Shown: positions 614-41,444 of the stretch, one piece after another | Position numbering within the stretch: position 1 is the stretch's first letter | Layout of the letters: each line of letters begins with the position of its first letter | Source of the DNA: Leptogorgia sarmentosa | Taxonomy: Eukaryota | Reading direction: 5' to 3' | NCBI GenBank assembly: GCA_964658305.1 | Contig: OZ210885.1 | Location: 9,672,001 to 9,736,000 of the forward strand | Length of the DNA stretch: 64,000 nt | The notes under the pieces: model-generated | Told to the model about the DNA's origin: nothing | The model's input: only the letters and a program-made list of their open reading frames with translations | Databases searched by the model: none | Translations under genes and position numbers: made by a program

Positions 614-1199
614 CAGGGTGTCTCAATAAAAAGGTAATCCAACTTTGGCATGCCATTGTGCGTTAATTACTGGGTGTACGAACGTGATTTTTGCATGGTC
701 ATAAAGATCAAGGTCTTAGCAATTGAATGACATATTTCTTGTACAATATGGGAGAAAATCAGGCAAATGCGAGCGTGTTGAAAAATCTCGGTGAAAAACG
801 CATTCTTTCACCTCTGAGAATTGCAGCTAAACTTATTCAAAATTAACTCCCTCTGGGACTCGAAGATGACGACCTTCCCTTCAACAATCGACCTGATTAT
901 GCATAAGTATTAATAATCCTGATAAAATCTTTGTTACCATGACGCATTCGTGATGAATTGCATTTTTCTTTTGTTATGCACTGCTTTAATTAGGCACAGA
1001 GGTGAAAGAATGCGTTTCTTACCGAGATTTTTCAACACGCTCGCATTTGCCTGATTTTCTTCCATATCGTACAAGAAATATGTCATTCAACTGTTAAGAC
1101 CTTGATCTTTATGACCATGCAAAAATCACGTTCGTACACCCAGTAATTAACGCACAATGGCATGCCAAAGTTCGATTACCTTTTTTTTGAGACACCCTG
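614..1199. mobile_element. Tc1/mariner-type MITE, copy 1 (~200-bp TIRs)
   Basis: Begins CAGGGTGTCTCAA, ends TTGAGACACCCTG, TA on both flanks (612-613, 1200-1201); long near-perfect inverted arms; near-identical copy at 43388-43960. Confidence 0.9.
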
Positions 1200-3242: not shown

Positions 3243-3859
3243 CTTGTCGCCAGAAGTAACTATGATATCATCGGAGCAGGGCACGAATTCTAACGCGGTA
3301 ATGGAATCAGAACAAATGGAATCAGAACAAATGTTATCATGTGACCACATTAACGTCGGCACGTTTTCGTCAACATTCCAAAACTTCACAGACCCACCGA
3401 TAGACCCCGATGCAAAGTGAAGAGAACGATCATGACCTCCTAGCTCGCCTTTAACTTGAGAAATGGCATCCTCGTGTGCTGGGAATTTCAACTGCGAGTT
3501 ATTGTTAACATGAAACCATAACAGTTCTCCGTCATCACAACCAAGCAATGCATAGTTTGAACCAAGAGCAGTAATGCAGGTGACTTTAACTTCTGGTTGA
3601 CCCAATTTCACGCTGGCCTCGATATCATTAAAAGTTCTAAGTTCGATTCTGTTTACCTCATCAACAAAAACGAAACGGGCATCATCACTTAATAAGCAGA
3701 CAAAACGTATGGCGACTCCAGATTCGGTCTTTGCGAATTGAACTTTTTTAGAACACTCCATGTCGACCAGCGACAATGTTCCCGAACTGCTTCCAGACAA
3801 AACAAATTTCCCATTTGATGTGATGTCAATTGCTGTAACTATCGAGTCGTCAGGGTGAC
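3243..3859 (-). CDS. Exon 14: WD40 repeats
   Basis: GHPDDSIVTAIDITSNGKFVLSG...AHEDAISQV...FASGSIGGSVKFWNV; donor AAG|GTATGT, phase 0. Confidence 0.88.
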
Positions 3860-6800
3860 CTGCATGAAGGAAGTAAAATTTTTATTTGAAGTATTCAAGT
3901 ATGCGACGCTTCAGCGGTGTAGCCTGCCAATCATCGAAAAATATCCTTTAGACGACAAGTAAACTTTACAGGTGCAGCAATAGAAATTTATTTCAAATCC
4001 AGATAGGAAAATGCATCGCTGATACCGAAAACGCAAAAATAAGCCATTCACTGTTGTGAATCAGTGAATGAAAGACTAGTATACTGGAATAAAGGCCGTT
4101 TTCCATTACAGTCGTTTTGCCCGCGCGGGCTGAGCGAACGACTTTAACTTCGTCAAAAATCAATCGCGCGGGCACGCCAAGAAAGTTGAATGTAGTTCAA
4201 CTTCTAAGCGTCTCCGCGCGTGCAAAATTAGACAGAGAACGCTCAGATTAGACACCAATAGCTAAATCACACCCATTTCATCCGAAATTCAATCATTTTC
4301 ACCTGATAAATAGTACTTACATTGCACGAACTTTAATTTGAATGGCCATAATATTTCTTTCCCAATCATTGCAGTTATACTAATATTGACACACTTTTAC
4401 ACATTGTAGCGATGGATTTTTGTTTCTTTACTTATTTTCAAATTTTTGAGATCGCTAGATTTCTCTATTATGTATACGTTTACTCTAGACTAAAAACTTG
4501 CAGTGGGCTGAGAACTGTCTTTCACTAAGCCCATGGAAAGACAGTTTAGTAGAAAGGAAACTGACAGCTATCCTCCAAAACGTCAGCTGAGGTTTAAATC
4601 TTGAGGAATGTTCGCACAGCGCGACTAGTTAGGTTCGTTTTAGACGTCTAATTTTCGTCAAATTCAAACAATGAGGGAAGTAATCTCATGAATGATACGG
4701 GCTTCAACTTTATTTGGAAATCAGCAGATAAAAGCGGCCGAAAAATGGCCTGAGAAATTGCAATGTGTTGACATCCTTCATGTCGTGAAGGCACATGGAT
4801 GGGAAACGTACTATAGCAAAATACCGTTTAGAAAAAGATGAGATCAAAAATAGCACTGAAATAGCCAGTAGTGAATGTACGGACAAACAATAGCGTTATA
4901 TATCAAAATATGTGTATTTTGTTCAAGAAACGCTTCGACACGACGAATAGCAGAGATTCATGCTGTTACCTTTTTTGGAAATAATTTCAGTATTATTTTT
5001 CCAACACATTTAAAGGTCAATTGTTACCCGGAGTGTTTTTCATTAATTTTCATTCCGTCAAACTCATAACTGACGGGCGAATAGACCATTGATTTGCGAC
5101 TGGATTCTGTATTCTTATAAGTAGGATGACCAAGAAAACACAATATAAGCGGCAACTATAAGTAACGTAGTCAGCATAGTTAGTGATTATGCTCTAAAAA
5201 CGACATCTTTCATGTAAATTTCGTGGTCTTCAAGCATTGGACTGGGTTGACTAATTTTTGAAACCTCCTAGTTTTGGAACGACCTAAATAACGGATACAG
5301 GTTTGTAGATACTCGTGACGAAACCGTTTTAATTGTATTCTCCGTAAATCCTTTAACGAACATAATTTCATATATGTATACATAATCAGAACAGAAAATA
5401 GCCTGTACAGCTAGCCAAGACAATTTCAGAGCTAACACGTAAATTGAATTCAGTTATTTGACTCATTCGCGAGTGAATGCAGTCGTTTTTCGGGACTGGT
5501 ATATTCTCGTTTAAAACCGATATTTCACACATATAAATTATTGTGTGTATGAATATAGTAAAAAATCCTGTAGTGGCATGAAAGACTTAAAAGTATTTAG
5601 AAGTTTCAAATAGTCCTTGATTTACCCACCTGCATTATGGTCGACCCAACTATCAGTTGAATGTTTCCACTGGAGAAACACATTATTCTGAAGGGAGCCA
5701 AACAAAAGATCTTTGCCGTCGGGTGATATTACATGTGGGACCCTCGGCCGCTGACGTACAGTCGATACTTGCAAAGAGTCGAGATTGATTTCACAAATAT
5801 GCATATCCCGGTTGCATGTGTAAATCATGTTGCGATCGCATGCTATTTCCACTGTATAGGACACGGGTAAAATAACTTCTTTCAAAGACGCATCAGGCTT
5901 TTGCCAGTCCCAGATGAACACATGGTTATCTTTGCATCCAATTACAACTTGCAACCGATCAGAACTAAAGCGAACAATCTCAGGTGTGCCAACGCTATCA
6001 ATTCCATTGATCACACTGCCATCGGACAAATTCCACACCTTAAAAAATAAAAGGAAAAATTAATATTCTGTATGAAGCGCAACACGCGCGTAAAACTTGT
6101 GACTATATTATTTACCAAAACTAATTAACAATTAGACAACAAGGCCGAGTTGTCTAATTGTTTTAGTATACACTCTATGCCCAGAATTATTTATATCAAG
6201 AAAATTCTTCAGAAACCTCAGCAAAACGCGAGTTTTCTGCAGTAGGCATATTGTTTTCCTTTGCTTTTTCGCGAACCGTGGTCTATCACAGATTAGTAGA
6301 ATCATACTCGTATACTATTGCAAATGCTGCAATTTGATTGGCTACTCTATTCGATATCTATTTAACAATTAGATTACGAGCTCGAGATTTCTATGAGGTG
6401 ATAGTTGATGAGGGCGAAGCCCGAATCATCTATCATCTCGTAGAAATCGAGAGCGAGTAATCTAATTGTTTTAGTAGAATCAGAGATCAAACATGAAAAT
6501 ATTGCAAAAAATAATTTAAAACCGCGTCTCAGAAGACATTTTCTTGAACGAAAATTCACATATTTTGCTACTCGCTATCTATCGAGGAATAGATAGCGAG
6601 TAGAGTAGCCAATCAAATTGCAGCATTTGCAATAGTATACGAGTATGATTCTACTAATCCTCGATAGATAGCGAGTAGCAAAATATGTGAATTTTCGTTA
6701 AAGAAAATGTCTTCTGAGACGCGTTTTTAAATTAATTTTTGCAATATTTTCATGTTTGATCTCTGATTCTACTAAAACAATTAGATTACTCGCTCTCGAT

Positions 6801-24800: not shown

Positions 24801-27800
24801 ACAGTACGTACACTGTAGCACGTACCGCAATGGGAAATTTTCATTGCTGCATTTCATCATTATTAGTTTGCACATGTATTCATGCTTATGTTTGGGAACA
24901 TAACTGTGTTTAACTGCTCTTTCATGTCATTGAGTAGCCGTGAAAATTGACTGATTAAATTCAATTATTATCACATTTATTCAAGCAACTAACCTACCAA
25001 GTTCTAACAGTACAGCACAATGTTTGTCACAACAATTATAAAACAGGTCTAACTATATCAATTTTGTCTGTTGGAATAAGAGGATCTGAGGTCAAGATGG
25101 ACAAGATAAGTCAAACGACACCTGGCTATATATCTTGGCAATGGACAGTATTTCTAAAACAGTATTACTTTACAAACAACATTCATGTTGGCTTCCATTT
25201 GTTACTTTATCTATATTTTTTCATAAGTTAAAAACAAATGGTATAAAATGCTGTCATAATCTGTTGTCAGCTTGTAATTCAATTCATTTTCCTGTAATTG
25301 AATTCTATTATATATTGTAGTTCAATTCGATATGTGTGCATTAATTAGATACATGTGAAACGGCTAGAATTGTTCTTGGTTGATGTATCCCTATGAAATG
25401 CATTTCAGAGCAGTGGCGGCACTTGGGGCAAGGTGCCCCACCACCCAACTTTCACAGTTATAAGTGCCCTTTTAAAAAAGAAATTGACCTTCTTTCATGC
25501 CAAGAGGTCTAAACGCTAATATAATATACAATACCCGGCCTAAATGCCAAGTCTTTTGAATCTACTTGTACAGTATTACAATTTAAACATTAAGGTCTGC
25601 AACACAGGGTAATCAGTTGAAATATACACACACAAGCAAATTGTCTCAAAGTATATTTAGAAAGCTAGCATAGATAAATCTAATGGCCATTTTAAAATAC
25701 TCTTAGCATATACAAATACAACCAGCTTAAAAATTTGAAAGAAATCAGAAATTCCTAAAATAGTGCTTGTACATGAAAGCACTGGCTACCACCATACTAA
25801 CAATTAAGGAAAGACATTGCTTTCTTTCTAGGCATAATTTTTAATTACAATATTAGAATGCTGTTGCAAGCAGGTATTTTTTGTGCAATATTTGGGAACT
25901 GATTTATTCCAAAACATGATATTCCCCTCCAATCATTGCTTTATTGAACCATTAAGGAAGTTTATAATAAAGAATATGTTTTATCCGAAAGAAATAACAA
26001 ATATAATTCTGAAGAGACTCTATTGAAGTAAGATCTTCAAAATGTTATGAAATATTAACTCATACAGTATTGCATACCTGTTGCGACAACACATCTCACC
26101 CAATCTGTATGGCCAACCAAACTGGCCTCAAAATTTAGTGTATCGGCTTTCCACAACTTGATAGTCTTGTCACCATATCCAACAGTAGCAATGAACTGTC
26201 CATCTTTGGTCGTACACAGCGGACCGACTTCCTCAGGAATACTTGTTGAGAGGTTTTCTCCGGTAGATACACAATACACTTTCAGCCCTACAACGCATGA
26301 TGGATACTCGTCAGACTGATGTTTCAATAATGTCTAACCCTAGACGATTTTGTGAAATCTTGTTTTTAATTGTGTCCCTCTCCGGCGCTGAACATGCTCT
26401 GGCTGTTGCTGGCTTATGTTTTTACACTGCGTTTCACTGCGCTCTACAACGACGTTTACAGTTAACCGCTGGTTTGAAGATACGCAGTCGCTGGAATATA
26501 GAACACAAAAAGAATTAGTAAACATGGTCCAATCACACGATACGAAGCGTTAGCTGTTTGTAAATTTCATAAACCCACCCTCTACCATAGCTACATTGTG
26601 GGCAAATTGTATGCATTGTACAGGGCATCCATACCAGTGGTACTGTTGGTAAAACTTGGTTACAGATCGTGAAAGTTACAACCGTGAAGCAAGCGCCATG
26701 TATGGCAGTTGGGCTTCGTTCAAAATAATGAAAATATACTTTGTTTTCAAATGTAGTCGATTATGTACAACAGGTTACAGGTACGAATTCAGATAAAATG
26801 GTTGAAGTGTACGACGGATTAAGAACGAGCTCTCTTTCTCTCCAACCCGTTTCCGAAAGTTGAAATACAAATTTTTAACTCTTTTTTTTTCATTGAGTAT
26901 ATACCGCACGAAATAAAGACAAACACCATTGAAATCCTAGTGAAATGATCTTTCGAACGGTGGGTCGCTTGTTAGTTAAAACACAACACAAAAAAAATAA
27001 AGATTGATCGTCGGAAACGTAAGGCATTAGCATCTATCTGAGAAAAACAGAGTCCAATATGTTGAAATCCATGTCCTTATTTCTCCCTGAAGCAGCATAT
27101 TCATGAAACCTGTGTTATGTTCGTGTTATTTGCACATATAAAAATATTTCTACAAGCTTTTTTGCAATTGTCAAAAATTTCCCACGCGCACGGCATTTAC
27201 TAAAACAGGATAAATCAGGTTGCGCAATAGTCTGAAACATGTGGAAAACATGCCTTTGATTACGTAGGGTGCGTATTCTTATGTTTTTCAGTATTGGATA
27301 AACTCACTTCTGGTTTATTCGCACACGCATAAAAAACACGACAGGTGTCCCAGGAATTTCGCCCCCCCCCCAGCCAATTATAGTCATAGGGCAAATTCGA
27401 CCTAAATTAATATGATGTTGGAGAGAAAGAGTACTTTTCGTAAGTAATACATTTTTCTCTAAAATGTATTAACGATTATGCTGCACGAATCTGACGAAAT
27501 GCTTCTGAATTTCACATATTCGCTACGAAGCACAAGTTGAATACATACAGTGAATATTTAACTCATTGTGATGACTTCGTCGCTATTTACAGTATACTCC
27601 CACTCAAATATGGAACGTATTTAAAATAAGAACTGAAACAATATGCATCAATCCGCTTCATAAACGTTTAGTAAATAGCGATGTGCACAGTGGGGTAACT
27701 ACTAGGGGCCCAACCTGGCCGGGGCCCTGGGAAGAGGTTTCTTCAGGGCCGTGGCTAATGTGAAATTCAAATAATTTTTATTGAAACTGAAGATGCAAAA

Positions 27801-30800
27801 AAGTTCGAAGTTAACAAAATGTTAGATATCATTGAGTAGCTGAAACAATTTTGTTGCCTTTTAAATTGTGCTTGGATGTTGACAGTATATTAATTGTTGC
27901 AAATCACAGTCAATCTTTTACTGTTGTCATTGTTTCTGCTTTATAGGAACTTATTTTAGTGTGCTTCTTTTTACGGAACGTTTTTGCCTTTTGGGTATAA
28001 TTGAAGCAAAAGAGATGTTAAATAGCTATAATATGTTCGATAAGAAATAGCAGAATTAAAATGCATATCATATGCAGAATTCAGGAGAATATTTCGTAGA
28101 GTTAGCATAGTAAAAATGTGAAGCTAAGAGGAATAATAAAGAGGCCATCCACAACAGTTCAACCGCTGGCCGACACTGGAGATTTACGCCGCTGAATTTG
28201 CAACGTAAAACAAACATTTTGTGAACGTACTTTCAAGTATTTTTATTTGAAGAAAAAATAATTATTTTAATTAAATAAAAGTATTCCAATATTGAATTTG
28301 GTACCGGCGGGGTAACATATTTCCGAAAGTACGATCATTTGCGGAGTTATTTGACAAACATAATATGAAAAGGATTTAATTTTTTCTCCAATGGCATCGT
28401 TGCTGGCGTTCCTTCAGAACCGTTAAATCCGTACAGGTCAGCAAAATCTTATTTCTTATCGAAACTCGCGCACTTTAATACTAACTTTTAAGCAGAGCGG
28501 AAGTCGCGAAAACGTTTATGCAAATTTTCGTTTACGGTTTACCTATTCTGAACAACATTTTGATATCCTTTTTTGATTTGTGTTGAGATGCTTACCATCG
28601 TCTGCTCCAATAAACACTCGCTGATCATCTGCACTGAAATCCAGAGCATTAACGTTACGCTCCCCTTGGAACACAAAAAGCTGTTCATAACTGTCCATTC
28701 TCCAAAGGATTGTACTTTCGTCCCACGACCCTGACGCTAGTATTGTTCCACTTTGTGACACAGCCAAACAGCTAACGACGTCAGAATGTCCCTGTAGTTG
28801 TTGAACTTCTCTACCTGTTTATAAAATAAGATAGCACGTACATCAAAGGGCGTAATAGATCATTTTCACTCACATCGTTACTACACTAGGAGTGTTGTTC
28901 AAAACATTGTGGCAATAAAATAAATGACAGGACAAGTAACTACACTTACTAACCCATCAGATACACTCTACTTACACCGCTTACTGTCATTTTTACTATT
29001 ACGTCCCTATGGCACGATCTTTAATACTAAAAAAAAATAACTGTAATTTTGCGGAATTTACTGTGACGTGTTTCACAGGCGTGTGTTCTCATTCGTTACC
29101 GTTACGTTAACTACGTTATAATTTCATAAAAGTATGCCCTCATCTTTGTTGTGCAAGTCCATAGATATAGGTATCGAGCCAACTGGGGTTGATAGCGAAA
29201 TTTACTAATTTGAGTGTGCGAAATATTTTTGTGACGTCTTGAACGCGTGGGTAAGACTCGCTACTGGTCCCTGTTAGTGTTGGCTCGATAACTAAAGTGG
29301 TAGAATAACGGTCAAGTAACCTATACACGTAATTTATTGCTGTTTTGATGTAACAAATTATATATTCGTTTATTAAATCGTAAATTTCACCAACCACATA
29401 CTATACAAACATGGGTTTAATTGTAGAGCAGCCACACTTATGGCTGTTTTCCAATGCCGAACAGTTTACTGAAATTTATAATATATTTACTACTGTTTAG
29501 ATGAAATTTAGCGGCTGATGTTGGTGGTAGAACAGAAAGTAGATAATTGGAAAGCATGAATGAGGCCATAAACAGGAAAAGTTCTATACAGTGAATACCA
29601 ATGATTGCACAGGAATGTTGTCCTACTTGTATTTGTAATTACTGAACTTTCACATTTTAAAATTGGCAGATTTCATTTATGCACACGATTTCTTAATAAT
29701 TAATATGTTGCAGACAAAAGCATTCCCTCCAGCCATTTGTGAGATTATATATTTTTTACCCAGTAAACATATATTCTGTTCAAGAAATGACCGATTAATT
29801 TTTATCCCAGCGTAAATCTGGATGAACATGTCTCTTCAAGTATCTAATCCAAATTTCAAATATCATGATAAGACGACGACTACCGTACATGATTGGCTAA
29901 TTTTCTAATGAATTATCAATTACTTTGAGTGTAAACCTTTGTTCCCTCACCCATATCAACTGCATATTAACTATATTCTCATTTCAATGAATAACCAAGA
30001 TCAAAGCTTTTGTTTAGCTAAAAAGGCATGTATGAAGATGTTTAAAATATAGCATAAAAAGGTCAGCACTCATTTTCAAGCTGAAATTTAGACCCCGTTG
30101 TCGAGTTTGTGGCGTCTTACATCTTAAGGTCCCTACTATCAATTATTGGACGACGTCGCACGAAATACCGCGATTTATCGTTGGCGAGCGGATCAATTAT
30201 TTGCCGATTCCGCAAAGAGAAGCACGTAAGTAATCTGAGAACAACCGATGTATACCTGAAGCCTTTGCCAGAAATGTCGGACATGCGCCCGCGCAGCAGC
30301 CAGCGGGTATCCGTACAAAATTACAAATTATGAAAGAAAATGGCGTCGAGAAATACGTAAACAAAGCGTTTTTCCGCTCTTGCTATCGACTATAAAAAAC
30401 TAAACGAATTATCATCAACAACTTTATATAGCGGCGTACCTACACGAAAACACAGTCGTCTGTATGAAGTTGAGAGAATCCTTACACGCAGAAAAATACC
30501 ACAATCTCACACGGGATGATTCCCGCCAGCGCGGCACCGGAAATAAAATTGCAAGCGGATTTTTATCTTGAGATTATTTCGTGCACCCCCCTGGTTTATT
30601 TATTAGAATAGAGCGGTTCCTAAGCTTTATTTTGATACCAAACATGGCCGAACTTTGGGTAGATTCATTCTTTAAAATCGGCGTTGATTCATCTTATAAA
30701 CTTGGTTTTACGGTGGAAATTTTAGCTAAGAACTACACTATCCGAGATTCATATATTTACGATTTTTATAACAAATTTGAAACAAGTTAACGACAGTGTA

Positions 30801-33800
30801 TCTTCCCGAAATTATTTCACGATGTAGTGGTGTATATGTATTTTATAATGTGGAGTCTGCAAACGTTGCCAAGAGCACGAGAAACCAAGACTGCGCCGCG
30901 AAAACACTGCTAAATGGTGAAATTTGGGCTTAATACTATACTTTTCTATTAGGGAAAGTTCGTGGAATCAGTTCTAAAAAAGAAACAACTTAGCGGTATG
31001 GTATTGATAAAATATTACTAGGATATAATTACGAAGGATCATGCAAAGCGAAGCTGGAGTCTGCAACTCGGTTACAGCAGATAGAAATAGTTGTATTTTA
31101 TAATTTTCCTTCACACTGCTATAATTTCTATACAAGAACGGCGGCCATATTTAATTCAAATGCCCAGGCATGCGCAGTAGCAATGTCCAAAATTTCTGGC
31201 AATGAAAGCATAGCCACATTACCTAGGGTGATGCGAAGCATAATGGGACGAGCCCTGAGGCCAGTGGCCAGTGAGCTCCATGAGATTATAGCGCCGTGAA
31301 TTTCAGATGTAATCAACTACTTTACATTTGACCGCAGGTACGGTAAAAATGAACATTATTAATGTAGTTCCAGTTAGTTCATTATCAGCGCTAACAAAAA
31401 GAATTGAAGCTCAAGGCTAGTACAACGTTTCTTGACAATGGGTGATTTTGCACTGCAAAGTTTTGTTAATTAATAACGTCACCCGAGTGGCTTTGCGAAA
31501 TTGAGAGCGATTTCAAATTTGCTCAGTTTTTTATTCACGTATATCGCGCAGCCGCTCAACTTGCATAACTCAGAACTGCAGGATGATTCTTGCAAATGTG
31601 AGTGAAGATATGGTTGCACATAAAATTACAATTACAAGCAGAAGCGGCATTGAATCTGTGTTTTATCCCTTTTCCGGACCGGCGATCGGTCAAAAGAAAA
31701 AAAACTATTGAAAACCCCAAACCTTGCCATTAGTTTATCCATAGTACGTTACCACACGGTTACCTACCTGTGTCAAGATCAAAGATTGTGATTGAACCAT
31801 TATCTAAGCCACAAATGACAAGAGTAGCGGATAAAGTATTGGACGTCGCTAATGAGTATACGCTGGAATCAAACGTTTTTCGAAAGATCTCAGGGCTGCC
31901 AAGATCTAAACATGAGAATTCCGGTATAAGACGGCAAGTCTCCGTGCATGTTGCACGGAGTTGCTCCAATAGCGTCTTTATCCCCGGAAACTCTTCATAA
32001 GATAGCAGTCTGCCTGGAAAACAAAAATACACAACAGTATTAGCGCACGTAACAAATTCAGAAAATTTAAAATAGCATTTAAAGATGAAGACAATTTTTG
32101 ACCGGGAAAAAAATAAAACTGAACAACTAACTGATACTACAGGGTGTATAAAAAAAAAGTTTACTGATGAAAAACATTCTCCAAACCGACGAGGGCTCAA
32201 AATTTCGAAAAACTTTCGGTTAGCATTGGTAGTTTAACACCCTCTGGTATATCTAGCACTAAGTTTATTTTAAAAACAAACTTTTTTAGAATGCGAAATG
32301 TGGTTACTGAAAGGCCCATTAAAAACGGCTTGCGCGGAAAAAATAAGTTTTCTTCACACAATTTGATTTAATCGGATGAAAATATGGAGTACGATATACA
32401 AGCTATTCACGTTTTGAGAAATTTGGTGCACGCTGAGACGAACGTGCGATGTCCGAAAACTGGATTTTCCGCAATTTCTTCGCGTAATTTCTGACCTTCG
32501 GGAATTAGCTTTCAATTTGCATTGGTAATTAATGCAAATATCTAATGATGCATAAATTAATCCGCAATCACGCAGGAAAGAACGCAAAATCCAGTTTTCG
32601 GACATCGCACGTTCGTCTCAGCGTGCACCAAATTTCTCAAAACTTGAATAGCTTGTATATCATACTCCATATTTTCATCCGATTAAATACAATTGTGTGA
32701 AGAAAACTTATTTTTTCCGCGCAAGCCGTTTTTAACGGGCGTTCAGTAAAGGTTTAACAAAATGTTCGTTCCCTTCAGTGACTTTCATGATATAAAGAGG
32801 ACATAAAGTAGTATCAAAGTTTGAACTGAGACACTGAAAAAAAACGTTTTTGAAAGCTTCGCAATTGTTGAAAATGATGTTGAATTCTGTTTTAAATTGT
32901 GACAGTAAAAAGATGAGTAATTTATTTTATGATAACGGAACGAGTATTTATGAAATGATTTATTTCCGCATATGTTATACTGACAAGGGTTAATTCTGCT
33001 ATATCACCAGCAGTTGTCATGCTTAGTTGCTACACGATTAACAGAGTATAGTATGCATGTGTTCTTGATTGAGTTAGCAATGTTCTTTCCGACAGGAAGG
33101 ATATGCAACATGTGCGGTTATGCATAAAGTCCATAAATAACGACTTCAGCTCCGCGAAGAATAATCCTTCTTTGGTGGTGTCTTCAAAAAATCTTGGAAG
33201 TTTTCATTGTATATAATCATTTTCTGGAAGTTGAGATCACAGACATATTTACGATCGTGCTATAGTTCTCTTATCTGATCATTGGTGGCTGACAGTTGAT
33301 AGTTGAAGTACAGATGAAATACTGCATAACAGGTAGCCTTATATGTAGCTTTAATATACTGCTGTTCTGATAGACTTAGCTTCTGAGAAAATTCAACAAA
33401 ATTAATGTCATGGTTTCATCTGCTTTGATGGAGTCTATATAACTCAGGTATTCGTTCTAAAGCTTTCTTTAATATAGCTGCGACATTTTCGTGAAGATCA
33501 GTCTCAGATGAAGAAGAAGAAGAAGAAGAAGAAGATTTATCGCACCACCAACAAAATACATTATTTACAGAGTTTTTCCACGCGTTATTAAAACAAAATA
33601 GGTACAGGGTATCTGAAATAGCTTTTACGCTAATCAAAGTCAGATATCCTCATTTTAGTATTCGAGCCACTGTGGGTCAACATTAGATACACGGTCATAA
33701 GGAGAACTTATTAGCTTTTTGCATGCTTAATTTATTCTTGTATCTCATTTGCATATGCTCGTATCTCATTTGCATATGCAAATTTGGCAATTAGACACGC

Positions 33801-36800
33801 AAAAGGCGAATTATTCCAAAAAATGAAAGCTTGCGCGGCGTTTTGAAGGGCTTAAACTCAAGCATTTTTTCTGAAATTTTGAACGGAAATACAAAACCTG
33901 ACAAAGTTTCCGTCCATCAACTAAAAATTGCTTTTGAGCCTTTAAATTTCGTGCGCAAGACATTTTCTATCTGTTGGAAAAAAACACTCCCCCCGGGTTT
34001 TTGAAAATTTAAATTACAAAATTTTTTCGTTTATTCTACATTATAAGTACTCAACCAATCCACATAAACCGAAAACTTTGTACCTCGAGCCCCTTTGCGA
34101 AGTTGAAAATCTCTTCAGTTTTTTTTTATACACCCTGTAGTGTGGTAACAATCCAAAACAATTGCCATTCATCTACATGCAAGCGTACTTGGGCAGTGCT
34201 GGTAGCCGTTTCGACATATCGAGCAAAGACCCTTAGTCGTTAATTAGTACTGGGGTCAGGGGAAAACACAAGGGTTTTTATATTAGTGAATATATGGAAA
34301 CCAAGTAAAAACCAATCGGATGGATTTGATACACCAGTTTTCGAAAGCCTTCGCCAGATAAGTGGAATCTTATCGTATCGTTTAGCCAGTGAAACAAAAT
34401 TTATCAAAAAAAGAAAGTAATTACCTAACAGCTGTGGAGCAATAGAATGCAAATTCTCCTCGATAACCGCAAAAGACCGCATCAACGACGTCTTGAGCAG
34501 TTCGATTTCTCTCGAGGGCTGGTCCAGAAAACGAAAATCTGACATTAAGGAAGGGAGATCGAATTGATTCACCTTTTCATAAAGCCAGTTAAAATTGAAG
34601 AACAGTTTATGTAGTTCATCAAATTGCTCGGAGGAGTGGAGGTGATAGGTCAGGTACTTGAAATAATAATCCTTGTTGCCTTCAAATTTTCCCCAATCAC
34701 CGTTCTCGGAATGACCACGAAGTGCCTTCACGAACAATCTTTGGACAGAACCTAGTTTGCCTCCTACTTTTGCACGTGCAAAACCCAAAAGGAGATCGTG
34801 GAGACGGTAGCTCTTCTTTCCATGGATATCAGATCCTGAAAATTATCGTTATAAGGCGAATTTCAAATGAGTGCAAAATTTTGGTTAGCGATCGCTTTCT
34901 TTTGAAATGCTTGCGACCAGCCAAAGTTAATGAGAATTGCTGACTGTTTGTATTTCAAAATAAAGCGTTCGCTAAAAGTCGATCGCGCGCCATTTCGCCC
35001 TGAATTAAATTCTGCCATTAGAGAACATAGTCACGTATGGTGATTCGAAACGTTTTTGTACAGGACACTAGAGCAGTCTGGGACTGCAGTCAGGCTATAG
35101 TACAATAATTTTTCCGATTTAGAATACCCCAGGGCGATGGAAGTATTTTCCATTCAATTCGATTTGTTGCTCATCTAGGAATGTCAGAGGAAAACACTGA
35201 AAATATTGGGCAAATGAACGGGCAAATTTGGCTTGCCCACATATGAGTCAACATATGATTATAGCTGGAAAATAATTTCCTTAGGCTTGCTTGACGTTGA
35301 TTTGATTAAATGTTCAGCCTAACAACTTGTTGACAGTTAATATACAGGTTTCGCAAAAGGAGCTGTAGTAAAAAAGCATTTGAAAATTTTCTCGTCGTAT
35401 TCGTGCATTTCATTTGATTGCATGAAGCAACAGACAAATTTAGCGATCACAAAAGTTTAAAAATAAGACAACAAGCAAAAAGCTATCATCACAGTTGGAA
35501 ATAGCGTGCTGAAATTAGCATGAATACAAAGTTTGAAGAATAAAAATTATAAAATGAGGAAATTGTGCCCAAGCAAATTTAGCACAGTTAACATACAATT
35601 TATAAAGTAGAAGTGATTTAACACCCATTTTCGTCTGAAATGGATATAATTTTGTTTGCTCTGATACAATAGTACACAAAATGAACTGTGTCTGGCAATG
35701 ATATTCCCATTTTATGATATTTCTTCTTTAAACTTTGAAGTTATAGTAATTTTTCCACGCTGTTTCCAACTGTGGCGAAGATTTTTGTCTATTATCATGC
35801 ACCGTGCCTTCATTTACCTTTTTGAATCATCGACTTCTTTTCGAGCTCATCAAGTATACGTCTTGCTTCACGACGGCTGCACGAAGTTCTTCCGGCTACT
35901 TTGGAAGACCAAAACATCTCAAGAATGTCTGATGGTACATCCGTATCTTCTGGAAATAAAGCGAAATCTAGAAACTTTTCTCGTATTTCTTCGTTCAAAT
36001 GTTGAAAGCTGGCGTTAATGGCTGTTAAGACGTTGTCGTAAGGATAAGCGTTGGTGGGATATATTGAACGTAATTTTACCAAGTCTGCTGTTTTGAGGTC
36101 ATTTAAAACGTCTTCCCAGTCTTGTTCGTCGCGAGTGTCGGCTAAACTTGAACCCACTAGGGACAGAGCTAGCGGTAGATCGCCGCAGTGGTTTAACAGT
36201 TCCTTTATAATTTGCCGCATGTTTGAACTAAACTTAGACTGCTCGTCCTCGGTGACTCGGGCAGTTTGATACAAGAGCTTGTAAGAATCATCCCGTTTTA
36301 AAAATTTGAGTTTATACAAAGCAGAACCTTGTAAACCGCGGACAACTTCAGAATTCCTTGTAGTTATCAATAATTGGCATTTTCCAGAGAGATGATCAAA
36401 TACAGAAGCGTGGTTTACACTCCAAACATCATCAAGAATCACCAAGCAATCTTTATCACTCTGCAATACATGGAAAACTACTTTATCGTCGTATGTGTTG
36501 ATACTTTTCGACTTATTTATTGGGGGTAAAATTAATCGCGTCGGAGCAGAAGGAAAGTTATCATGACTTCTGAGTCAGAAGGACACCAACTCTCATGACA
36601 GAAACATGGTAAAAACATAGGGATCATTGAAAGTTTATATGAAAGTAAATTAGCACTAGGGATCTTTTTTGAGAACGGTTTCCTTGTTATATCGCGGCAA
36701 TGAGTATTACATAAACCCTGGGAAAGGTGCACATACCGTATTTGCTTTTATCCAGCCTTGCGCGGCACGGATATCAGAGAACGTCATTTCTCCACCAATA

Positions 36801-39800
36801 TCTTTTATGAGGAGGTTAATCAGCGCTAGACAGTCTGGAGTTTCTCCAATGTCAAGCCATATTACCTGACGAGATTCTTTGGCAGCCCAAGCAACGGCCA
36901 GAGCTAAGATGGTCTTTCCCAGACCCCCCATACCACGGATACCAACGACGTCGCTCCCACGATTCCCAACCACACCAACTCTACTATTTCCATTCGCAAG
37001 TAACCTTAATATGTCGTTCACTTCTGACGGTCTCTCCACCATGTCACGAGGTAGACATCGCAAACCATGGGCAACTAACATATAAAATAAGAATTGATGC
37101 TGTATTAGTAGACCCACTTTTGTGTGCGTAACGAATGGACAATTAATTACATATATAACTGGCACACCCATTTGCTAACGCTGTATCGTGTCAATCTACT
37201 GGGCGTCCCAAACAAATGAAAACGTTACCATTGAAAATAATCTATTGTTAGAATTACAATGCCTCCGTGCCTCGCACTATAAGTTTAACCCAAGGGTGTA
37301 CAAATTGTTGAAAATTTCTTAATAGCTATCGAAATTGTTGTTATAGATTATTTTCAATGGTTGCGTTTTATCAGGGGGGGCTGTATGTATTTAAAAGGGG
37401 TTGCGTTTAAAAATGCACATTCACTGTTATTGTCTCAAACTGGCTACTTTTTCCCATAATCATATAGAGGGTAAATTTAATAAAACCTGATGAATGACTA
37501 ATGAAGAGGACATTTTTTCCTCATTCAGGGCAAAATTACTTCACCCTGATTGGCTTAATTTTCAGAATTTTTCACGTATGGCTTCCTCGCATTATTTGTC
37601 GTGTGTGAAATCGTCAAATTAAAATAGTTTAATAAATATTAAAGAAAATTCTGTTATCTGCCTGTGCCAAAACACTGCACGCGAAGTCTCTTTGATTGCA
37701 TACACGCCATTTTCCCAACTTTTTGCGTTGTACACCTGTGCCAATTTAGAAACGTTAAACTGGAGAATATTACGCAAACTATCTTACTGATGGACCAAAT
37801 ATTGACTGAATGCTAAAATACTAAACGTCTAACTGATATACCTACGTAACTGCTTAATTCATACATAAAATTAAGTGGCTTCTCAACAGATCCGAATATA
37901 CTTCTACAATTACTCTCGCTGGCTAATTTGTGGCGCGTAATCACATTGTAATATTTTTTTCAACAATTTGATACCTTTTGGTGGCGAATAATTTCTTTGT
38001 CTCTCATGATGACTCTCCGTCTTGTTGACATTTTGCTGTAAACATTTAATTTCATTGAAAGTACTCTCAATTTTGTCCGCATGGCTTTGAAGCTCCTTAG
38101 AATGATGTTCAAATTTTGCCGAGTGTTGTTCAAGTTCCTTTGAGTGTTCTCCAAGTTCCTTTGACTGATGATCAAATTTTTCCGAGTGTTGTTCCAGTTC
38201 CTTCGAGTGTTGTTCAAGTTCCTTTGAATGTTCTCCAAGTTCCTTCGACTGATGGACAAGTTTTTCCGAGTTTTTCGCGACACATGTTTCAACTTTTTCA
38301 ATTCTGCTGACCAGTTTTGAATGGATGTTGTCAAGTTTCTCTACCACGGCATTCATCTGCAGAGATACATGTAAAGAGCTATAAATATTTCAATTTATAT
38401 TAAATATTCATGAATAAACATTAAAGATTAAAATATCTGCAGGGATACAAATGATGCTTTATTCACAGAACAATGCATGTATGAATGTGCGATATTTTCT
38501 GGTCAGCATTAGAAATGAAATTATATTTCCAAGCATCATGCATTATTCTTTTTAGAAATATTGCCCCATTGTCCCACAATGTGCTCCAAAAGTGCGACCA
38601 AAGTAGCCGGAGGAACTTCGTGCAGCCGTCGTGAAAGAAGACGTATACTTGATGAGCTCGAAAAGAAGTCGATGATTCATAAAGGTAAATGAAGGCAGGG
38701 TGCATGATAATAGACACTGTTAAGGCAGCGATATTTAGCTATCACATCTTAAATTGCCATAAAAAGAAGCAGAAAGTTCTATAATTAAAAAATTTATATG
38801 TTTTTGGAACTTATTGATCGATTATAAAGCAAATTTAACAGTTACGGAATAAAAATAAATATAAAACGGGCCATATGCCGACAAAATTTACATTCGCGTT
38901 AGCATAAAAAAGGATTTCAAATTTCTCTTTAAAAAGCATAATTCAAGTTTCGTTATACTTCATTTCGGATTCATATTCGAAAGGCATGGTATAAGCGTTG
39001 CCGCCATTAGATTTTCGTTCTTTAAAATGCTGTAGGCCTAATTCAGACGTCGTACATTTCATGTGCCAAATCTAATGTTAACGAGCTAAGTTCTTTGTTT
39101 GAGTTCAATTGGATTAGGCTTGGCACATCAAAAGTTCGACGTCCCAAGTTTCAACTGGCCTTATTCCACAGACACCAAAGAATATGCTCAGGTTGGATTC
39201 GTATTGAATAAAACAATGTTCCTGTAGTTATAAAGCAGTAGCATGCAAAATACTGCATGGCATAATTTCAACAAATAAACTACATGACCTCATGCATAAA
39301 CACGTCACAAGGTGTGATGCATACAGACAATTCTGGTTTTATAGTAGTAAAAGCAGGAATCTATGAAAACAAATGAACGTTTCCGTCCCGACCACCAGAA
39401 CCAGAACCGTGCACGACAACCTTTCGTGACGTCATTATACATAAGGTCTATTGAAATTTGACATGCAGGTCTGCTAGTTTTTAAACTTTTCAGAAAATTG
39501 TAGTTCAACGTTGAAACATCAATAGCAATTTTGCAAGGAAAAGTTATTGTTATCTACCAATTGTTTTGCTTAATGGGGTGTCCTAGGGCTAGTTTTTTCC
39601 TAAAAGAGAATTTATATTAGTATTTATCAGTAATTGATATGTAGTGTGTTTTATTTATCGCTCCACGCTTCGTTCTAAGTATTCTGTTGCAAACGTCTCC
39701 CCCAAAAAAGTATGCACATGTTTGACTTGTAACGTTTAACGGGTAAAGCAAAACTCATAAAAACAGCATTATCCTAAAAAAGCACAGATTGCGTTCCCAC

Positions 39801-41444
39801 GCTGAAAATTTGCACTCGCTCGCATTTGAAACATGTCTTATATTAATTTGAACTGCGTCTTCCTACTTATTCAACGACTGTTAAATGAAACATCAAAATT
39901 AAAGTTCCTCAAACCTTTGTGTCGGCGTTCAAATTGAAGTTTTTCATACAACGGCAAAGTTCAGCCACACTTTCTGCAATTAGTTTTGCGTGACGACCGT
40001 CAACAAGAATGTCTGGAAATAATGAAAAAAATTTATCTTGAGTATCACAAACACTATAAATATATCCCTGCTAATGCGCGTAGCACGAAGGATACATAAA
40101 AAAGCATGCCTTGCTGTCCATACAAGCTATTTGATAAGCATGGTCTGTTGTCGCTATTAGCAAACGTCAATATGCGGCCAGTGTAGTAGATAGGGGATAA
40201 CAACATCAGCAAGCAGCACATGTCCTACCCACTACCTACAATGCAAACAGGTTGGACGTTTTGAGTAAAGTAGATTTTTTGCATATTAGACAATTTTTAA
40301 AAATTTCGAAATAGTACAATTCAGAGCTACATCGTTAAAGAGCATCCCAAAGTTTGTAAAACTGTAAAGTTTGGTTGAGAAAATGTTGTAAAATGCGAAA
40401 AATATGACCCTGTAATGTTTTCAAATTTTGTATATTTTAGTATTACCCATGAAAAATTTATATCCCTATCGAGAAAAGTCTATCAATTTTGAGTGCCTAA
40501 TACTAAAATGAAAAAAATTGGCATCGATAAATACTGTATATGATTTTGAATACAGTATTAAAGGCATTTAACTTTTGCACTTATGTGAAGATCTATCACT
40601 GTCACCAATTAAACACTAGATTTCTACATAAAGTTTCAAAGTAGCTACACTATCGCAGAATTCCAACGATTGATTGTACTGAGAATTGCATTGAATTGTA
40701 TAATATGGTAATATAGGAATCAAATTGGATAATAATAATAATAAATGAATAATAGAGTTTGAATAAGGGGGTTTTCCTACAGGAAATAAAAAATGATCTG
40801 CGCAAAACATATTTAAAGGAATGATGAGATTCCGGCAATAATGGTAATAATACAGTACCTGTTTTATTCCAGAAATCTAGTTCATCACAAATCCTTTTTT
40901 CGTCAACTGCTGGAAAATTAATTTTTTTCACCAAAGATTCCATTCCTTGAAACGAGTCATTGAACATATGTACTGTCCATTCAGAGATGTTACAATGAGC
41001 CCATGGGTTTCTGATGTCCGACCGAACTTTGTTTGCTTCAGCTGCAGCACCAGAAGATACGAAAGGAGCTGCCTTGCCGATAATAGTCAAAAGTGCTGAC
41101 ATATCCATGGTTTCATCAAATCCAGTGAAATGTGCCATAAAGTCCGTGACGAATAGTTTCGCCAACGAGACAGGATCTTTAACAGCATAATCATAAGCTG
41201 ATATAGTAGGCTTGTGGATAATGTTGTTGTTAATGTTTTGATATTGTAGGTTATGGGTGGAAGGGGGTAATTTCTTCCTTCTGCATGCTGCGAAATCTTG
41301 CTTGTGAATTTCATCAGGTGGTTGGCATAAAGAATGATACCATTTCCCAAATTCAGTGGCGACAACTTTCCTTAATGCAGGTGCAAGAACTTTGGTAAAG
41401 GCAATGCCAACTAAAACCCAATGTTGTTCTTCCTCTGATATCAT
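3243..41444 (-). CDS. Apaf-1-like STAND protein: HEPN-like (DZIP3/CXorf38-type) - coiled coil - NB-ARC - WD40 repeats; 14 exons in window, 3' end not found
   Basis: Exons with GT-AG boundaries and matching phases: 41444-40859, 40012-39915, 38356-37975, 37074-36737, 36460-35818, 34835-34425, 32013-31768, 28814-28596, 26287-26078, 23666-23423, 21905-21667, 18952-18846, 6038-5630, 3859-3243. Total 4749 nt (1583 codons) with no stop. Motifs: Walker A GMGGLGKT, Walker B CLVILDDVW, LLITTR, CGDLPLAL, LHD, many GH...WD-type repeats. Confidence 0.88.
5630..6038 (-). CDS. Exon 13: WD40 repeats
   Basis: VWNLSDG...VRFSSDRLQVVIGCKDNHVFIWDW; acceptor TTTTTTAAG. Confidence 0.85.
6294..6862. mobile_element. 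Two copies of a palindromic non-autonomous element (Crypton-like), one inverted inside the other
   Basis: 6294-6361 is the reverse complement of ~6589-6657, and ~6358-6587 is the reverse complement of ~6659-6862; AACAATT termini and a GGGCGAAGCCC hairpin loop. Confidence 0.65.
8281..11097 (-). CDS. LINE ORF2: apurinic endonuclease plus reverse transcriptase
   Basis: APE motifs LNETRL, GDLNANM, SDH; RT motifs NYRPISIL, QFGFR, DLQKAFD, GIPQGSILGPLLF, FADD. Frame stays open upstream to the ORF1 stop at 11170. Confidence 0.97.
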   Translation of the reverse strand: MGMLNITSLPKHIDEIRVILADECLDILALNETRLDNTINNQVMCISNYDLIRIDRSRTGGGVCLFVKTSLNYLERKDLTRDNLEAVCVEIRKPSTAPFIVGTIYRPPSASVDSFAAIEQLVQTIDDENKEFYILGDLNANMLDTSNNATKNLNSIMELYQLSQTINTPTRVTTTSSSLLDVCLTPTPTRLITSQVIPIAISDHYMIFVVRKINIQRKQNSHKKVEIRNLKYFNAESFQADLRGQEWELLDSNLCVDEMWNTWKTLFLNILDWHAPIREKRVQSKPNVPWLTSTIKKQIRERDRLKSLAIRHKSDNYWNAYKTLRNRVTDALRETKAAYYKGEFEKVKHDPKKAWKTVNKILNRKQESREINCLETQRGQISHPAELAECFNNYFTNIGPDIAKNIDSGDRNFKDYITTTSSSFNFQTVSESNVYRLLLSLNPRKSTGIDKIPAKIIRIAAPVVTNSLTKIFNMAITSATVPSEWKIARVTPIFKNGPRNQLNNYRPISILPVVSKLFEKVLCEQLQEYLDTQELLSPRQFGFRKFHSTASALLDSTNEWFINMDRGLFNIALFLDLQKAFDTINHDILLAKLNLYGLQKPSLNLLESYLTNRTQMCSVNGALSGTKLVTCGIPQGSILGPLLFLIYVNDLPNSLEYSSTRMFADDTALTVSGKSIQDVEVAINHDLTNVKQWLSANRLSLNLVKTEYLLIGSRYNINNLLSAPNVFVGDTPIKRVKETKALGVHIDEFLSWDKHIDKIAKKISSGIGAIRKLKSCVDHNTLICAYNALILPHLDYCCEVWDTIGATLSDRLQKLQNRAARVITGRKNEHGQSELALDELKWKPLNERRAHFVASLMYKITHELAPKRLIDLFQGTPSSYYYNMRGSSTKLFLPKPKTEYLKKSLSYRGAKLWNSLPDEARNKFSLASFNSYIRHLAN
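11170..12954 (-). CDS. LINE ORF1: coiled coil plus SGNH-type esterase domain
   Basis: IAGDSIL, VKSFSG, HVGTND, GGLHLN; NRF motif; internal ~42-aa tandem duplication. ATG 12954 preferred because the GTG at 13023 lies in the host TIR. Confidence 0.9.
   Translation of the reverse strand: MTSVKNILYGNFRLAKNKLKWSGALEDLKALVLMEIDEDTAENTNWRSPSGGTWKFESVLLAVTWQTKSMNISFEGEKGKDLTERVISYLKEESVKEHNSIASAQSVTKDGGDITTTEGETSAQVVYNELSTEEESAKEHNSIALAQSVTKDDGGDTTTIECETSAQVVCNELPTEVSEIKLKLNQHIVETKAELQQIKENFADQLDQLKELNLNGGTKVTEYCLTSLAHDNATLRHENTQLRRDNDELRERFNNCSYIVSDLNTKIKNIEDEKLSLVTALKLLQEDSKSVSLNNRDAIHNTWHTPGHKARANVHNTSANHACQTKTARSADMIAQEQVIKTPNRFSLLSTDHDSDKDLEANDEADLTESSTSTIRQRNSNSDPNKHDKQRNKESQSTRTSAEIPKDKAKTNNRKNTTNANSNDHKSGKLVFIAGDSILQHVHGWNLSNDDQRVSVKSFSGSKVEDMQDYIKPLLRKKPDEIILHVGTNDIKDNSKTAEVVAAGILNLGTQVKESLPRTNVCISGIITRKDKSNIQEKINTVNDILKRVSDLNKWTYIDNTNLDYTCLNRGGLHLNRKGSSSLTRNYSNHLSRN
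13229..13309 (-). other. tRNA-like sequence with Pol III A and B boxes inside the outer TIR element
   Basis: Minus strand: TAGCTCAAGTGGTAAAAC (A box) ... AGTTCAAGCCCC (B-box-like) ... T-run; no convincing anticodon arm. Confidence 0.5.
13784..14362 (-). CDS. C2H2 zinc finger plus acidic linker plus helical domain (192 aa), left-TIR copy
   Basis: CKFCGKAFNRRFNLRRHENMYC; C-terminal NDPVHKKIMQTK...EEAIQAAVDKRKFLI, which from memory resembles small ORFs of invertebrate Polintons. Confidence 0.75.
   Translation of the reverse strand: MSCKFCGKAFNRRFNLRRHENMYCPLKDQESEMSETDSQTTESEGDFSTASTHSSESPVTTDDETEEEENDPWMPMVEETMQKYKTAFKEMKTNLIHSGLDEQSAGQKAYSEFLPKLQNELESIYMNRLSWMKQLKNDPVHKKIMQTKDAFVNDDNFDPEEAIQAAVDKRKFLIKNLLKDYIFTEDSDDEDH
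14937..15271 (+). CDS. Small zinc-finger and coiled-coil protein in the unique core of the Polinton-like element
   Basis: ATG at 14937: MSRTRRNCPVFGCGSTNLARLANHLAQIH (C-x4-C...H-x4-H) followed by a charged helix. Confidence 0.6.
15546..16124 (+). pseudogene. Right-TIR copy of the zinc-finger gene with a nonsense codon at position 3
   Basis: ATG AGC TGA versus ATG AGC TGC in the left copy; open from ATG 15609 to 16124, which omits most of the zinc finger. Confidence 0.8.
17846..17998. mobile_element. Inverted pair of Penelope-like terminal fragments
   Basis: 17846-17908 is an imperfect reverse complement of 17932-17998; contains CTGACGA-GGGCCC...GAAACG, resembling a minimal hammerhead core. 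Related fragments near 17190-17260 and 19130-19250. Confidence 0.5.
18846..18952 (-). CDS. Exon 12: WD40 repeat (not in ORF track)
   Basis: GDLEWAKHVAVSADDQYVVSLSKDGNILFSMKSSIK joins exon 13 to give IK|VWNL; the donor GTGTAG is weak. Confidence 0.7.
21667..21905 (-). CDS. Exon 11: WD40 repeats
   Basis: VLTASWDGSIRVWNL...SSSEDGTFKLWNF; phase 2 to phase 1. Confidence 0.9.
22156..22240 (-). mobile_element. 5'-truncated L2/CR1-type 3' tail
   Basis: Minus strand: TAGGG...CCCTA stem-loop, AATAAA, (TATC)n tail; same layout as the LINE end at 8019-8100. Confidence 0.45.
23423..23666 (-). CDS. Exon 10: WD40 repeats
   Basis: LVSASDDGTIKIWDL...LKGHESDVTSVAVS; donor AG|GTGAGT. Confidence 0.9.
26078..26287 (-). 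CDS. Exon 9: WD40 repeats
   Basis: FIATVGYGDKTIKLWK...LVGHTDWVRCV; phase 1 to phase 1. Confidence 0.88.
28596..28814 (-). CDS. Exon 8: WD40 repeats
   Basis: LQGHSDVVSCLAVSQSGTILASGSWDESTILWR; donor GATG|GTAAG. Confidence 0.9.
31768..32013 (-). CDS. Exon 7: end of helical domain and first WD40 repeat
   Basis: Splicing to exon 6 gives QLLGRLL; LVICGLDNGSITIFDLDTG. Confidence 0.85.
32140..34137. mobile_element. Non-autonomous Tc1/mariner-type element (~2 kb) in intron 6
   Basis: CAGGGTGTATAAAAAAAAA ... TTTTTTTTATACACCCTG with TA on both flanks. Confidence 0.8.
32307..32746. mobile_element. Nested palindromic MITE
   Basis: Near-perfect inverted arms of about 165 bp, TA flanks, located inside the 32140-34137 element. 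Confidence 0.75.
34425..34835 (-). CDS. Exon 6: LHD motif and helical domain
   Basis: SYRLHDLLLGFAR...YYFKYLTYHL...LFFNFNWLYEKV; acceptor TTTTCAG, donor TTAG|GTAATT. Confidence 0.9.
35818..36460 (-). CDS. Exon 5: NB-ARC Walker B, sensor 1, GxP, winged helix
   Basis: CLVILDDVW, LLITTRNSEV, CGDLPLALSLVG, FALFPED; acceptor TTGCAG, donor AAAG|GTAAAT. Confidence 0.92.
36737..37074 (-). CDS. Exon 4: NB-ARC start with Walker A
   Basis: LPRDMVERPSEV...VVGIRGMGGLGKTILA; acceptor TGTTAG, donor ACG|GTATGT. Confidence 0.9.
37975..38356 (-). CDS. Exon 3: coiled coil of HSKELEQ heptads
   Basis: TGCAG|ATG acceptor, AAAG|GTATC donor; 21-nt tandem units encoding heptads. Confidence 0.8.
38598..38716 (+). 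repeat. Inverted 119-bp copy of the exon 5 3' end and its splice donor
   Basis: Reverse complement of 35786-35904 with a few substitutions; also visible as the matching ORFs at 35698 (+) and 38463 (-). Confidence 0.9.
39035..39161. mobile_element. Short Harbinger-like MITE remnant
   Basis: AGGCC...GGCCT ends with internal inverted arms GACGTCG..TGTGCCAA / TTGGCACA..CGACGTC. Confidence 0.45.
39915..40012 (-). CDS. Exon 2 (98 nt, not in ORF track)
   Basis: Acceptor TTTTTTTCATTATTTCCAG, reads DILVDGRHAKLIAESVAELCRCMKNFNLNADTK, donor AAG|GTTTGA; bridges phase 1 to phase 0 exactly. Confidence 0.7.
40859..41444 (-). CDS. Exon 1: N-terminal HEPN-like domain
   Basis: ATG at 41444 (MISEEEQHWVLVGIAF...); DPVSLAKLF...DMSALLTII...RSDIRNPWAH with R-x4-H at 41012-40995; donor AG|GTAC at 40858, phase 1. 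Confidence 0.8.

Follow-up and report, generated by a model that had tools for sequence, protein, structure and literature searches.

A gene of Leptogorgia sarmentosa joins a predicted HEPN head to an Apaf-1-like NB-ARC–WD40 chassis

Results

Gene structure and splicing

The window analyzed here, a stretch of 64,000 nucleotides from Leptogorgia sarmentosa (contig OZ210885.1), carries on its minus strand an intact, spliced gene for a HEPN-like–coiled-coil–NB-ARC–WD40 protein (Table 1). Exons were located by six-frame translation and inspection of splice sites; the 14 exons, joined by script from 41444 to 3243, comprise 4749 nt or 1583 codons without a stop, with GT at all 14 donors, AG at all 13 internal acceptors and consistent phases, so that the phase-consistent 14-exon reading frame proposed in the initial annotation was borne out. 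An ab initio gene scan missed exon 12, which was recovered by homology.

Table 1. Features of the HEPN–NB-ARC–WD40 gene and of its likely upstream tandem paralogue (positions in the window)
Feature	Position	Strand	Evidence
Exon 1, aa 1-195, all-helical CXorf38/Swt1-like HEPN-subfamily domain	40859..41444	-	homology, model; joint with exon 2 in X4, L002, L003
R145-N-P-W-A-H150, predicted HEPN catalytic motif	40995..41012	-	conservation among homologues
D114, conserved acidic residue, candidate partner of H150	41103..41105	-	143/157 homologues
Exon 2, start of helical linker	39915..40012	-	X4 contigs, L002/L003 homology, joined reading frame
Exon 3, coiled-coil-like linker	37975..38356	-	sub-cut-off coiled-coil Pfam matches; colinear in P0001/L002
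21-bp tandem array, 6.8 copies, HSKELEQ-type heptads	38120..38262	-	repeat scan
Exon 4, NB-ARC start; Walker A GMGGLGKT at 36934-36911	36737..37074	-	Pfam, reading frame
Exon 5, Walker B LDDVW, ITTR, GxP, winged helix	35818..36460	-	NB-ARC Pfam; PDB matches
Exon 6, LHD (MHD-type) motif at 34803-34795 and APAF1 helical domain	34425..34835	-	PF17908
Exon 7, link to WD40 region	31768..32013	-	homology, X4, reading frame
Exon 8, WD40	28596..28814	-	Pfam, X4, reading frame
Exon 9, WD40	26078..26287	-	Pfam, X4, reading frame
Exon 10, WD40	23423..23666	-	Pfam, X4, reading frame
Exon 11, WD40	21667..21905	-	Pfam, X4, reading frame
Exon 12, part of WD40	18846..18952	-	homology and phase only
Exon 13, WD40	5630..6038	-	homology and phase only
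Exon 14, WD40; phase-0 donor at end	3243..3859	-	Pfam, homology, reading frame
Second-last exon, likely upstream tandem paralogue	61627..61873	-	matches P0171 aa 1512-1604; splice sites
Last exon with stop codon, likely upstream tandem paralogue	56067..56380	-	matches P0171 aa 1600-1707

Contigs of sequencing run X4 skip 846, 276, 982, 2411, 2953, 2308, 2411 and 1517 bases, the predicted lengths of introns 1, 4, 5, 6, 7, 8, 9 and 10, and thus agree with 8 of the 10 introns compared (introns 1–10; the joints come from the best 15 of 36 rows, with introns 2 and 3 not among the matches listed). The joint between exons 1 and 2 has a depth of 205, with 89 letters on its shorter side. Run X4 is not recorded as RNA and its contigs are 88–99% alike, so alleles or paralogues are possible as their source; runs X1–X3 gave genomic-type contigs, with no splice joints among the matches listed. 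The same architecture is found in two intronless homologues, one encoded by locus L002 (4084 nt, encoding P0001), which contains exons 1–10 in order at 68–85% identity, and the other being P0171, which aligns across aa 1–1583 at 49.8%. At a further locus, L003, exons 1 and 2 are joined and the sequence then continues as intron 2 would. L002, L003 and P0171 are homologues, alleles or paralogues and no proof of splicing for the present allele; together with the X4 joints, L002 and L003 support the earlier claim that splicing joins exon 1 with the NB-ARC exons. Effector, NTPase and repeat sensor are thus placed in one polypeptide by exon joining and the X4 contigs, as they are in P0001 and P0171. 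The named close relatives come from Dendronephthya gigantea and Xenia, both octocorals. By a simple NG86 estimate against L002, dN/dS is 0.28 for the linker, 0.29 for the NB-ARC and 0.39 for the WD40 region, with a span of 0.24–0.39 over four regions, which shows the gene to be under purifying selection.

The gene model lacks its 3' end: position 3243 is a phase-0 donor, and full-length P0171 is longer by about 195 residues, encoded by two exons that match only the upstream copy. The gene is therefore likely to have 16 coding exons, the last two lying beyond the window; an ab initio scan of 1–3240 returned no exon 15. A tandem paralogue is likely to precede the gene upstream. At 41452, at an AG just 5' of the start codon, the X4 contigs diverge from the window, and a spliced 5' UTR exon upstream of the start codon is suggested; it was looked for within the 64-kb window and not found.

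Mobile elements and repeats are also found in the window. Intron 12 holds an apparently intact non-LTR retrotransposon on the strand of the gene (8284–13128, minus strand), whose ORF1 (GDSL esterase domain) and ORF2 (endonuclease and reverse transcriptase) are open over 652 and 962 aa, respectively, and a 1246-bp inverted repeat (13320–16588, 98.6% identity) whose arms flank a small palindrome at the center and each carry a C2H2 zinc-finger ORF (about 190–206 aa). Between the two paralogues lies an open hAT-type transposase ORF of 1018 aa (48177–51230, minus strand) with DUF4371 and hAT dimerisation domains and a weak OTU-like N-terminus. The end of exon 5, with its donor region, recurs in inverted orientation in intron 2 (38601–38701, plus strand), and a 16-bp tandem array of 31.6 copies occupies 54192–54693.

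An Apaf-1-like chassis behind a helical linker

The central part of the protein contains GMGGLGKT (aa 403), LDDVW (477), ITTR (500), GDLPLAL (561) and LHD (694), so that Walker A, Walker B, sensor 1, GxP and MHD-type motifs, as well as the winged helix, of an NB-ARC STAND protein are all present. Pfam recognizes NB-ARC in exons 4–5 (E 6e-22; 3.5e-21 for exon 5), the APAF1 helical domain (PF17908) in exon 6 (E 5.8e-11) and WD40 in later exons, and the exon 5 region matches structures of Apaf-1 and plant NLRs in PDB. The complete NB-ARC and the WD40 repeats named in the initial annotation are hence confirmed both by Pfam and by motif positions, and the combination of NB-ARC, APAF1 helical domain and WD40 propellers is that of canonical Apaf-1. 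No CARD, DED or Death domain was detected at the N-terminus in the Pfam search of exon 1.

HEPN and NB-ARC are connected by a helical linker of 160 aa with heptad repeats, for which exon 3 yields weak coiled-coil Pfam matches below cut-off. The heptads, of Leu/His type, are encoded by a 21-bp minisatellite, and their number varies between homologues (SKEL is counted six times here, seven times in P0001 and not once in P0171), perhaps also between alleles, as seen in gapped contigs. The length of the array could tune the reach of the HEPN head.

Exon 1 and its relation to HEPN domains

Exon 1 alone has no Pfam match at E≤0.1, and a profile built from it retrieved nothing meaningful among PDB sequences. 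At E≤0.001 its family has 376 representatives; the listing covered 150 of them, the alignment 70 and the renewed Pfam scan 62. Among the aligned members, 29/70 match HEPN_Swt1 and 21/70 match DUF4559, which we take to be the CXorf38 family (E≤0.1), and the curated cut-offs are passed by five (DUF4559) and one (HEPN_Swt1) of the 62 rescanned homologues. The HEPN_Swt1 matches fall over the motif region; the DUF4559 match of P0062 covers the whole domain, and the alignment between P0062 and exon 1 runs over the full domain (34%, E 7e-39). The link to curated HEPN families is thus transitive only, by way of homologues. An assignment to the DZIP3 type was rejected, exon 1 having no PF18738 match; the sole strong match to this model among the homologues is the second domain (aa 248–308) of P0021 from D. 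gigantea, a protein in which the exon-1-type HEPN directly precedes a DZIP3-type HEPN, so that the two might pair within one molecule.

The intact R-x4-H motif reported earlier, RNPWAH, was confirmed at aa 145–150 (41012–40995). As 248 of 604 unrelated 195-aa windows contain a plain RxxxxH, the motif by itself proves little and gains its meaning from conservation. The stricter pattern R[NDH]xxxH sets homologues apart from background: 139 of 162 motif-spanning homologous domains have it, as do 46 of 48 proteins of at least 600 aa (long fusions), against 23 of 604 background windows. Arg and Asn are each found in 147/161 and His in 150/163 aligned homologues, and R145, N146, W148 and H150 are conserved at 91–92% over 170 domain hits, figures that are somewhat inflated because the homologues were gathered by similarity to a motif-containing query. 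H150 is the sole highly conserved His of the domain, and D114, conserved in 143 of 157 homologues, is a candidate partner for it, by a likeness, drawn without alignment, to D134 of CXorf38, for which a His-Asp dyad (D134/H167) and the motif RNEIMH have been proposed (preprint 10.64898/2026.05.28.728550). The domain evolves with dN/dS of 0.20–0.29 in all three pairwise comparisons (simple NG86).

An AlphaFold model of exon 1 (pLDDT 96.9) is all-helical, with the motif at the end of helix 133–149. Its structural neighbors include the Swt1 C-terminal domain (Z 7.0, 119/136 residues aligned, rmsd 3.4) and the HEPN toxins 5yep (Z 6.7) and 7ae2 (Z 6.6), all of which tie with bromodomains, and an acyl-CoA dehydrogenase scores higher (Z 8.5); the modelled fold is compatible with HEPN, not decisive. 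Foldseek returned no match at E≤0.001 for the model among PDB and viral structures, a two-copy complex prediction run without alignment spoke neither for nor against pairing (score 0.01), and a prokaryote genome scan with the single protein, able to detect close relatives only, gave none in 43 candidate stretches. As direct Pfam and PDB matches are lacking and the fold is indecisive, membership rests on transitive homology and motif conservation. On these grounds the putative HEPN identity assigned to exon 1 and the conservation of R-x4-H stand, the domain being homologous to the CXorf38/DUF4559 and Swt1-like HEPN families, and none of the observations named beforehand as refuting, in so far as sequence or model could reveal them (an exon 1 not spliced to the NB-ARC, a fold at odds with HEPN, an unconserved motif), was made.

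Origin of the fusion

The closest matches of the NB-ARC are about a dozen anthozoan proteins, from octocorals and sea anemones. The initial annotation had the HEPN domain standing in place of the CARD, a wording that was rejected, since no CARD match was obtained and the proteins closest in their NB-ARC are headed by DED or Death domains: DED pairs in P0169, P0172, P0287 and P0289, with Dendronephthya among their sources, one DED match in Nematostella P0175 and a Death pair in Xenia P0173. In the NB-ARC tree (37 rows, without any CARD-type Apaf-1), the three proteins with a HEPN head cluster as a single clade (97/92), which has the DED-bearing P0169 as its sister (96/91) and is nested inside a DED/Death-bearing octocoral clade. 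In the HEPN tree (a 46-row quick search without bootstrap), the fusion proteins group with octocoral HEPN-STAND-TPR-beta-helix proteins (SH-aLRT 97), to which similarity spans HEPN and extends into the coiled coil. This grouping, taken with an NTPase identity of 22–26% to the HEPN-STAND-TPR proteins versus 64% to the DED-bearing octocoral proteins, suggests a swap in octocorals, by which HEPN and coiled coil from the HEPN-STAND-TPR-beta-helix family replaced a DED pair; the recipient was presumably an anthozoan DED-NB-ARC-WD40 protein. WD40 repeats occur in only two of 169 HEPN-family proteins (P0001 and P0171), so the fusion is narrow. Beyond the anthozoan proteins, bacterial NB-ARC-WD40 proteins predominate in the 120 NB-ARC matches listed, a lead only, as the search scored part of the candidates; within the same scope, no vertebrate Apaf-1 is named.

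Judged by its neighbors in 37 longer homologues, the HEPN domain behaves as a mobile effector head, preceding NB-ARC, nSTAND3 with ankyrins, NACHT with LRR, AIG1 GTPase or kinase-KEN and following Roc-COR. In P0042, P0102 and P0045 the domain is found C-terminal to Roc-COR and N-terminal to AIG1 GTPase, and P0131 of Xenia sp. combines HEPN, kinase and KEN of RNase L/IRE1 type, that is, two predicted RNase domains in one protein.

Discussion

With modest confidence, we favor the reading that the protein is a self-contained HEPN–NB-ARC–WD40 immune or cell-death switch, in which a ligand-driven oligomer pairs the HEPN heads and leads to RNA cleavage. The ligand would bind the WD40 propellers, nucleotide exchange would flip the NB-ARC to an ATP-bound oligomer, the helical linkers would let the HEPN heads of the oligomer come together in a two-sided active site, and the paired heads are predicted to cut RNA, which would end in translation arrest or death without caspases. 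Autoinhibition, oligomerisation, RNase activity and the final arrest or death are put forward from family knowledge: HEPN RNases have a composite site that needs dimerisation (preprint 10.64898/2026.05.28.728550, PMC13017515), and STAND proteins are autoinhibited until a ligand meets the sensor (PMC10246899). A predicted HEPN head where relatives carry DED or Death domains makes RNA cutting likely, rather than caspase recruitment. Against this reading, the literature searched, which covered few subscription papers, yielded no CXorf38-like protein with an assayed RNase activity.

The alternative that survives best, although unlikely, is that the coiled coil holds the HEPN heads together in advance while the folded NB-ARC and WD40 body keeps them clamped and inactive, the ligand freeing the clamp by a SAMD9-like or RAZR-like conformational release without an apoptosome-like ring. 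DED and Death domains act through clustering, and their presence in the sister proteins argues against it, as do the absence of the heptad array from P0171 and an NB-ARC, winged helix and helical domain that are intact and Apaf-1-like. The heptad-bearing linker fits such pre-pairing, which also finds parallels in RAZR, a HEPN RNase already oligomeric and activated by repositioning (PMC13017515), in SAMD9, autoinhibited by its own C-terminal half (PMC10246899), and in the occluding helical bundle proposed for CXorf38 (10.64898/2026.05.28.728550).

Hardly more probable, and if anything a shade less so, is a HEPN domain that does not cut and serves as an RNA binder, bait or interaction module, signalling through DED paralogues and caspases, perhaps in mixed oligomers. 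Several HEPN families, Swt1's own included, are thought to be inactive or RNA receptors (PMC3710099), Apaf-1-like proteins are able to bind nucleic acids (PMC11747288), and octocoral DED paralogues with a 64% identical NB-ARC exist. However, loss of the motif is described for inactive HEPN families (PMC3710099), whereas the polar set expected of catalysis (R, N and H) is kept here in nearly all long fusions.

That exon 1 encodes a helical domain unrelated to HEPN, with a coincidental motif, would account for the missing direct Pfam and PDB-sequence matches, the indecisive fold and the frequency of RxxxxH by chance, and is nevertheless very improbable, given that six homologues pass the curated cut-offs of two HEPN-type Pfam models and that the strict motif is conserved. 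Least credible of all is a chance chimera or a decaying copy without function, as the repeat-rich region, the retroelement in intron 12 and the inverted piece of exon 5 in intron 2 might hint, a pseudogene being largely refuted by the stop-free frame, the canonical splicing signals, the contigs in spliced form, the two full fusions found independently and dN/dS against L002.

Returning to the preferred ligand-gated switch, a bolder and so far tentative proposal, which we hold somewhat short of probable, is that one DED-pair-to-HEPN swap turned an octocoral caspase-recruiting Apaf-1-like receptor into a ligand-gated RNase ring, the Pfam-invisible module being carried on at least five kinds of oligomerising NTPase in corals and bivalves. 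The sister proteins offer a clean comparison, with an NB-ARC chassis that is 64% identical and a head that is a DED pair in some and HEPN in others, which makes it testable whether an apoptosome-type switch drives RNA cleavage directly. If the proposal is true, this RNA-cutting immune system would be the first shown in animals to build on HEPN and to be gated by oligomerisation, the kinase-linked RNase L/IRE1 type aside.

Both the architecture class and the proposed mechanism are already in print as predictions. CXorf38- and DZIP3-type HEPN–NACHT fusions were described in cnidarians, with the same working logic proposed (PMC3710099); DZIP3-HEPN-NACHT proteins number 17–83 per anthozoan, with 83 in D. 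gigantea (PMC8260672), and more than 50 in the pearl oyster (PMC9646362). Published tables also list DZIP3-HEPN-NB-ARC-TPR, DUF4559-NACHT-ankyrin/LRR/TPR and DUF4559-NB-ARC, as seen for DUF4559 in the best 23 of 27 rows, and a HEPN or DUF4559 head appears in none of the seven APAF-1-domain rows of the stony-coral table (PMC10236652; see PMC8195603 for context). The remark of the initial annotation that invertebrate HEPN-STAND fusions had been noted computationally thus proved right, as hundreds of them are on record for corals and oysters. The literature searched, which covered few subscription papers, contained neither a functional study of any animal HEPN-STAND protein nor a report of the present exact architecture. 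What is new is the Pfam-invisible HEPN subfamily, its graft on an Apaf-1-type WD40 chassis and the DED-bearing sisters. Corals and bivalves have tens to hundreds of predicted HEPN-STAND receptors, and Pfam-based counts of coral HEPN receptors miss this whole subfamily.

With the known invertebrate HEPN-STAND receptors, which are expanded in cnidarians and bivalves, the protein shares an N-terminal HEPN with RNxxxH, a central STAND NTPase and C-terminal repeats, and it differs from them in joining a Pfam-missed HEPN subfamily to an Apaf-1-type NB-ARC, helical domain and WD40. With Apaf-1 and the anthozoan DED/Death-NB-ARC-WD40 proteins it has in common the NB-ARC, APAF1 helical domain and WD40 propellers, whereas its N-terminus is a predicted enzyme and no CARD, DED or Death domain is detected there. 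Among better studied animal proteins, SAMD9 is built from an AlbA-like effector and a TPR/OB sensor. It is a virus-activated human tRNA nuclease of STAND-like build and, with SAMD9L, resembles the present protein, as predicted, in that a STAND-like chain of an animal has an RNase of its own at the N-terminus; it is autoinhibited and becomes active on infection, but its nuclease is not HEPN (PMC10246899), and the NTPase and the sensor differ as well. Nematostella has DED-headed Apaf-1 homologues (PMC2246300), and stony corals retain separate CARD-bearing Apaf-1 genes (PMC10236652). Human CXorf38, classed as an active Swt1-like HEPN (PMC3710099), belongs to the nearest named HEPN family (DUF4559) and likewise combines an RN-type motif, RNEIMH, with a proposed His-Asp dyad; it differs by a Zn-ribbon insert (PMC3710099), and its activity is predicted. 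RAZR is a bacterial HEPN RNase switched on by supramolecular assembly (PMC13017515), but without an NTPase. Bacterial Avs proteins are STAND sensors with enzymatic heads (PMC10246899, PMC13581612), and direct RNA cleavage by the switch proposed here would parallel both Avs and human SAMD9, which use other nucleases.
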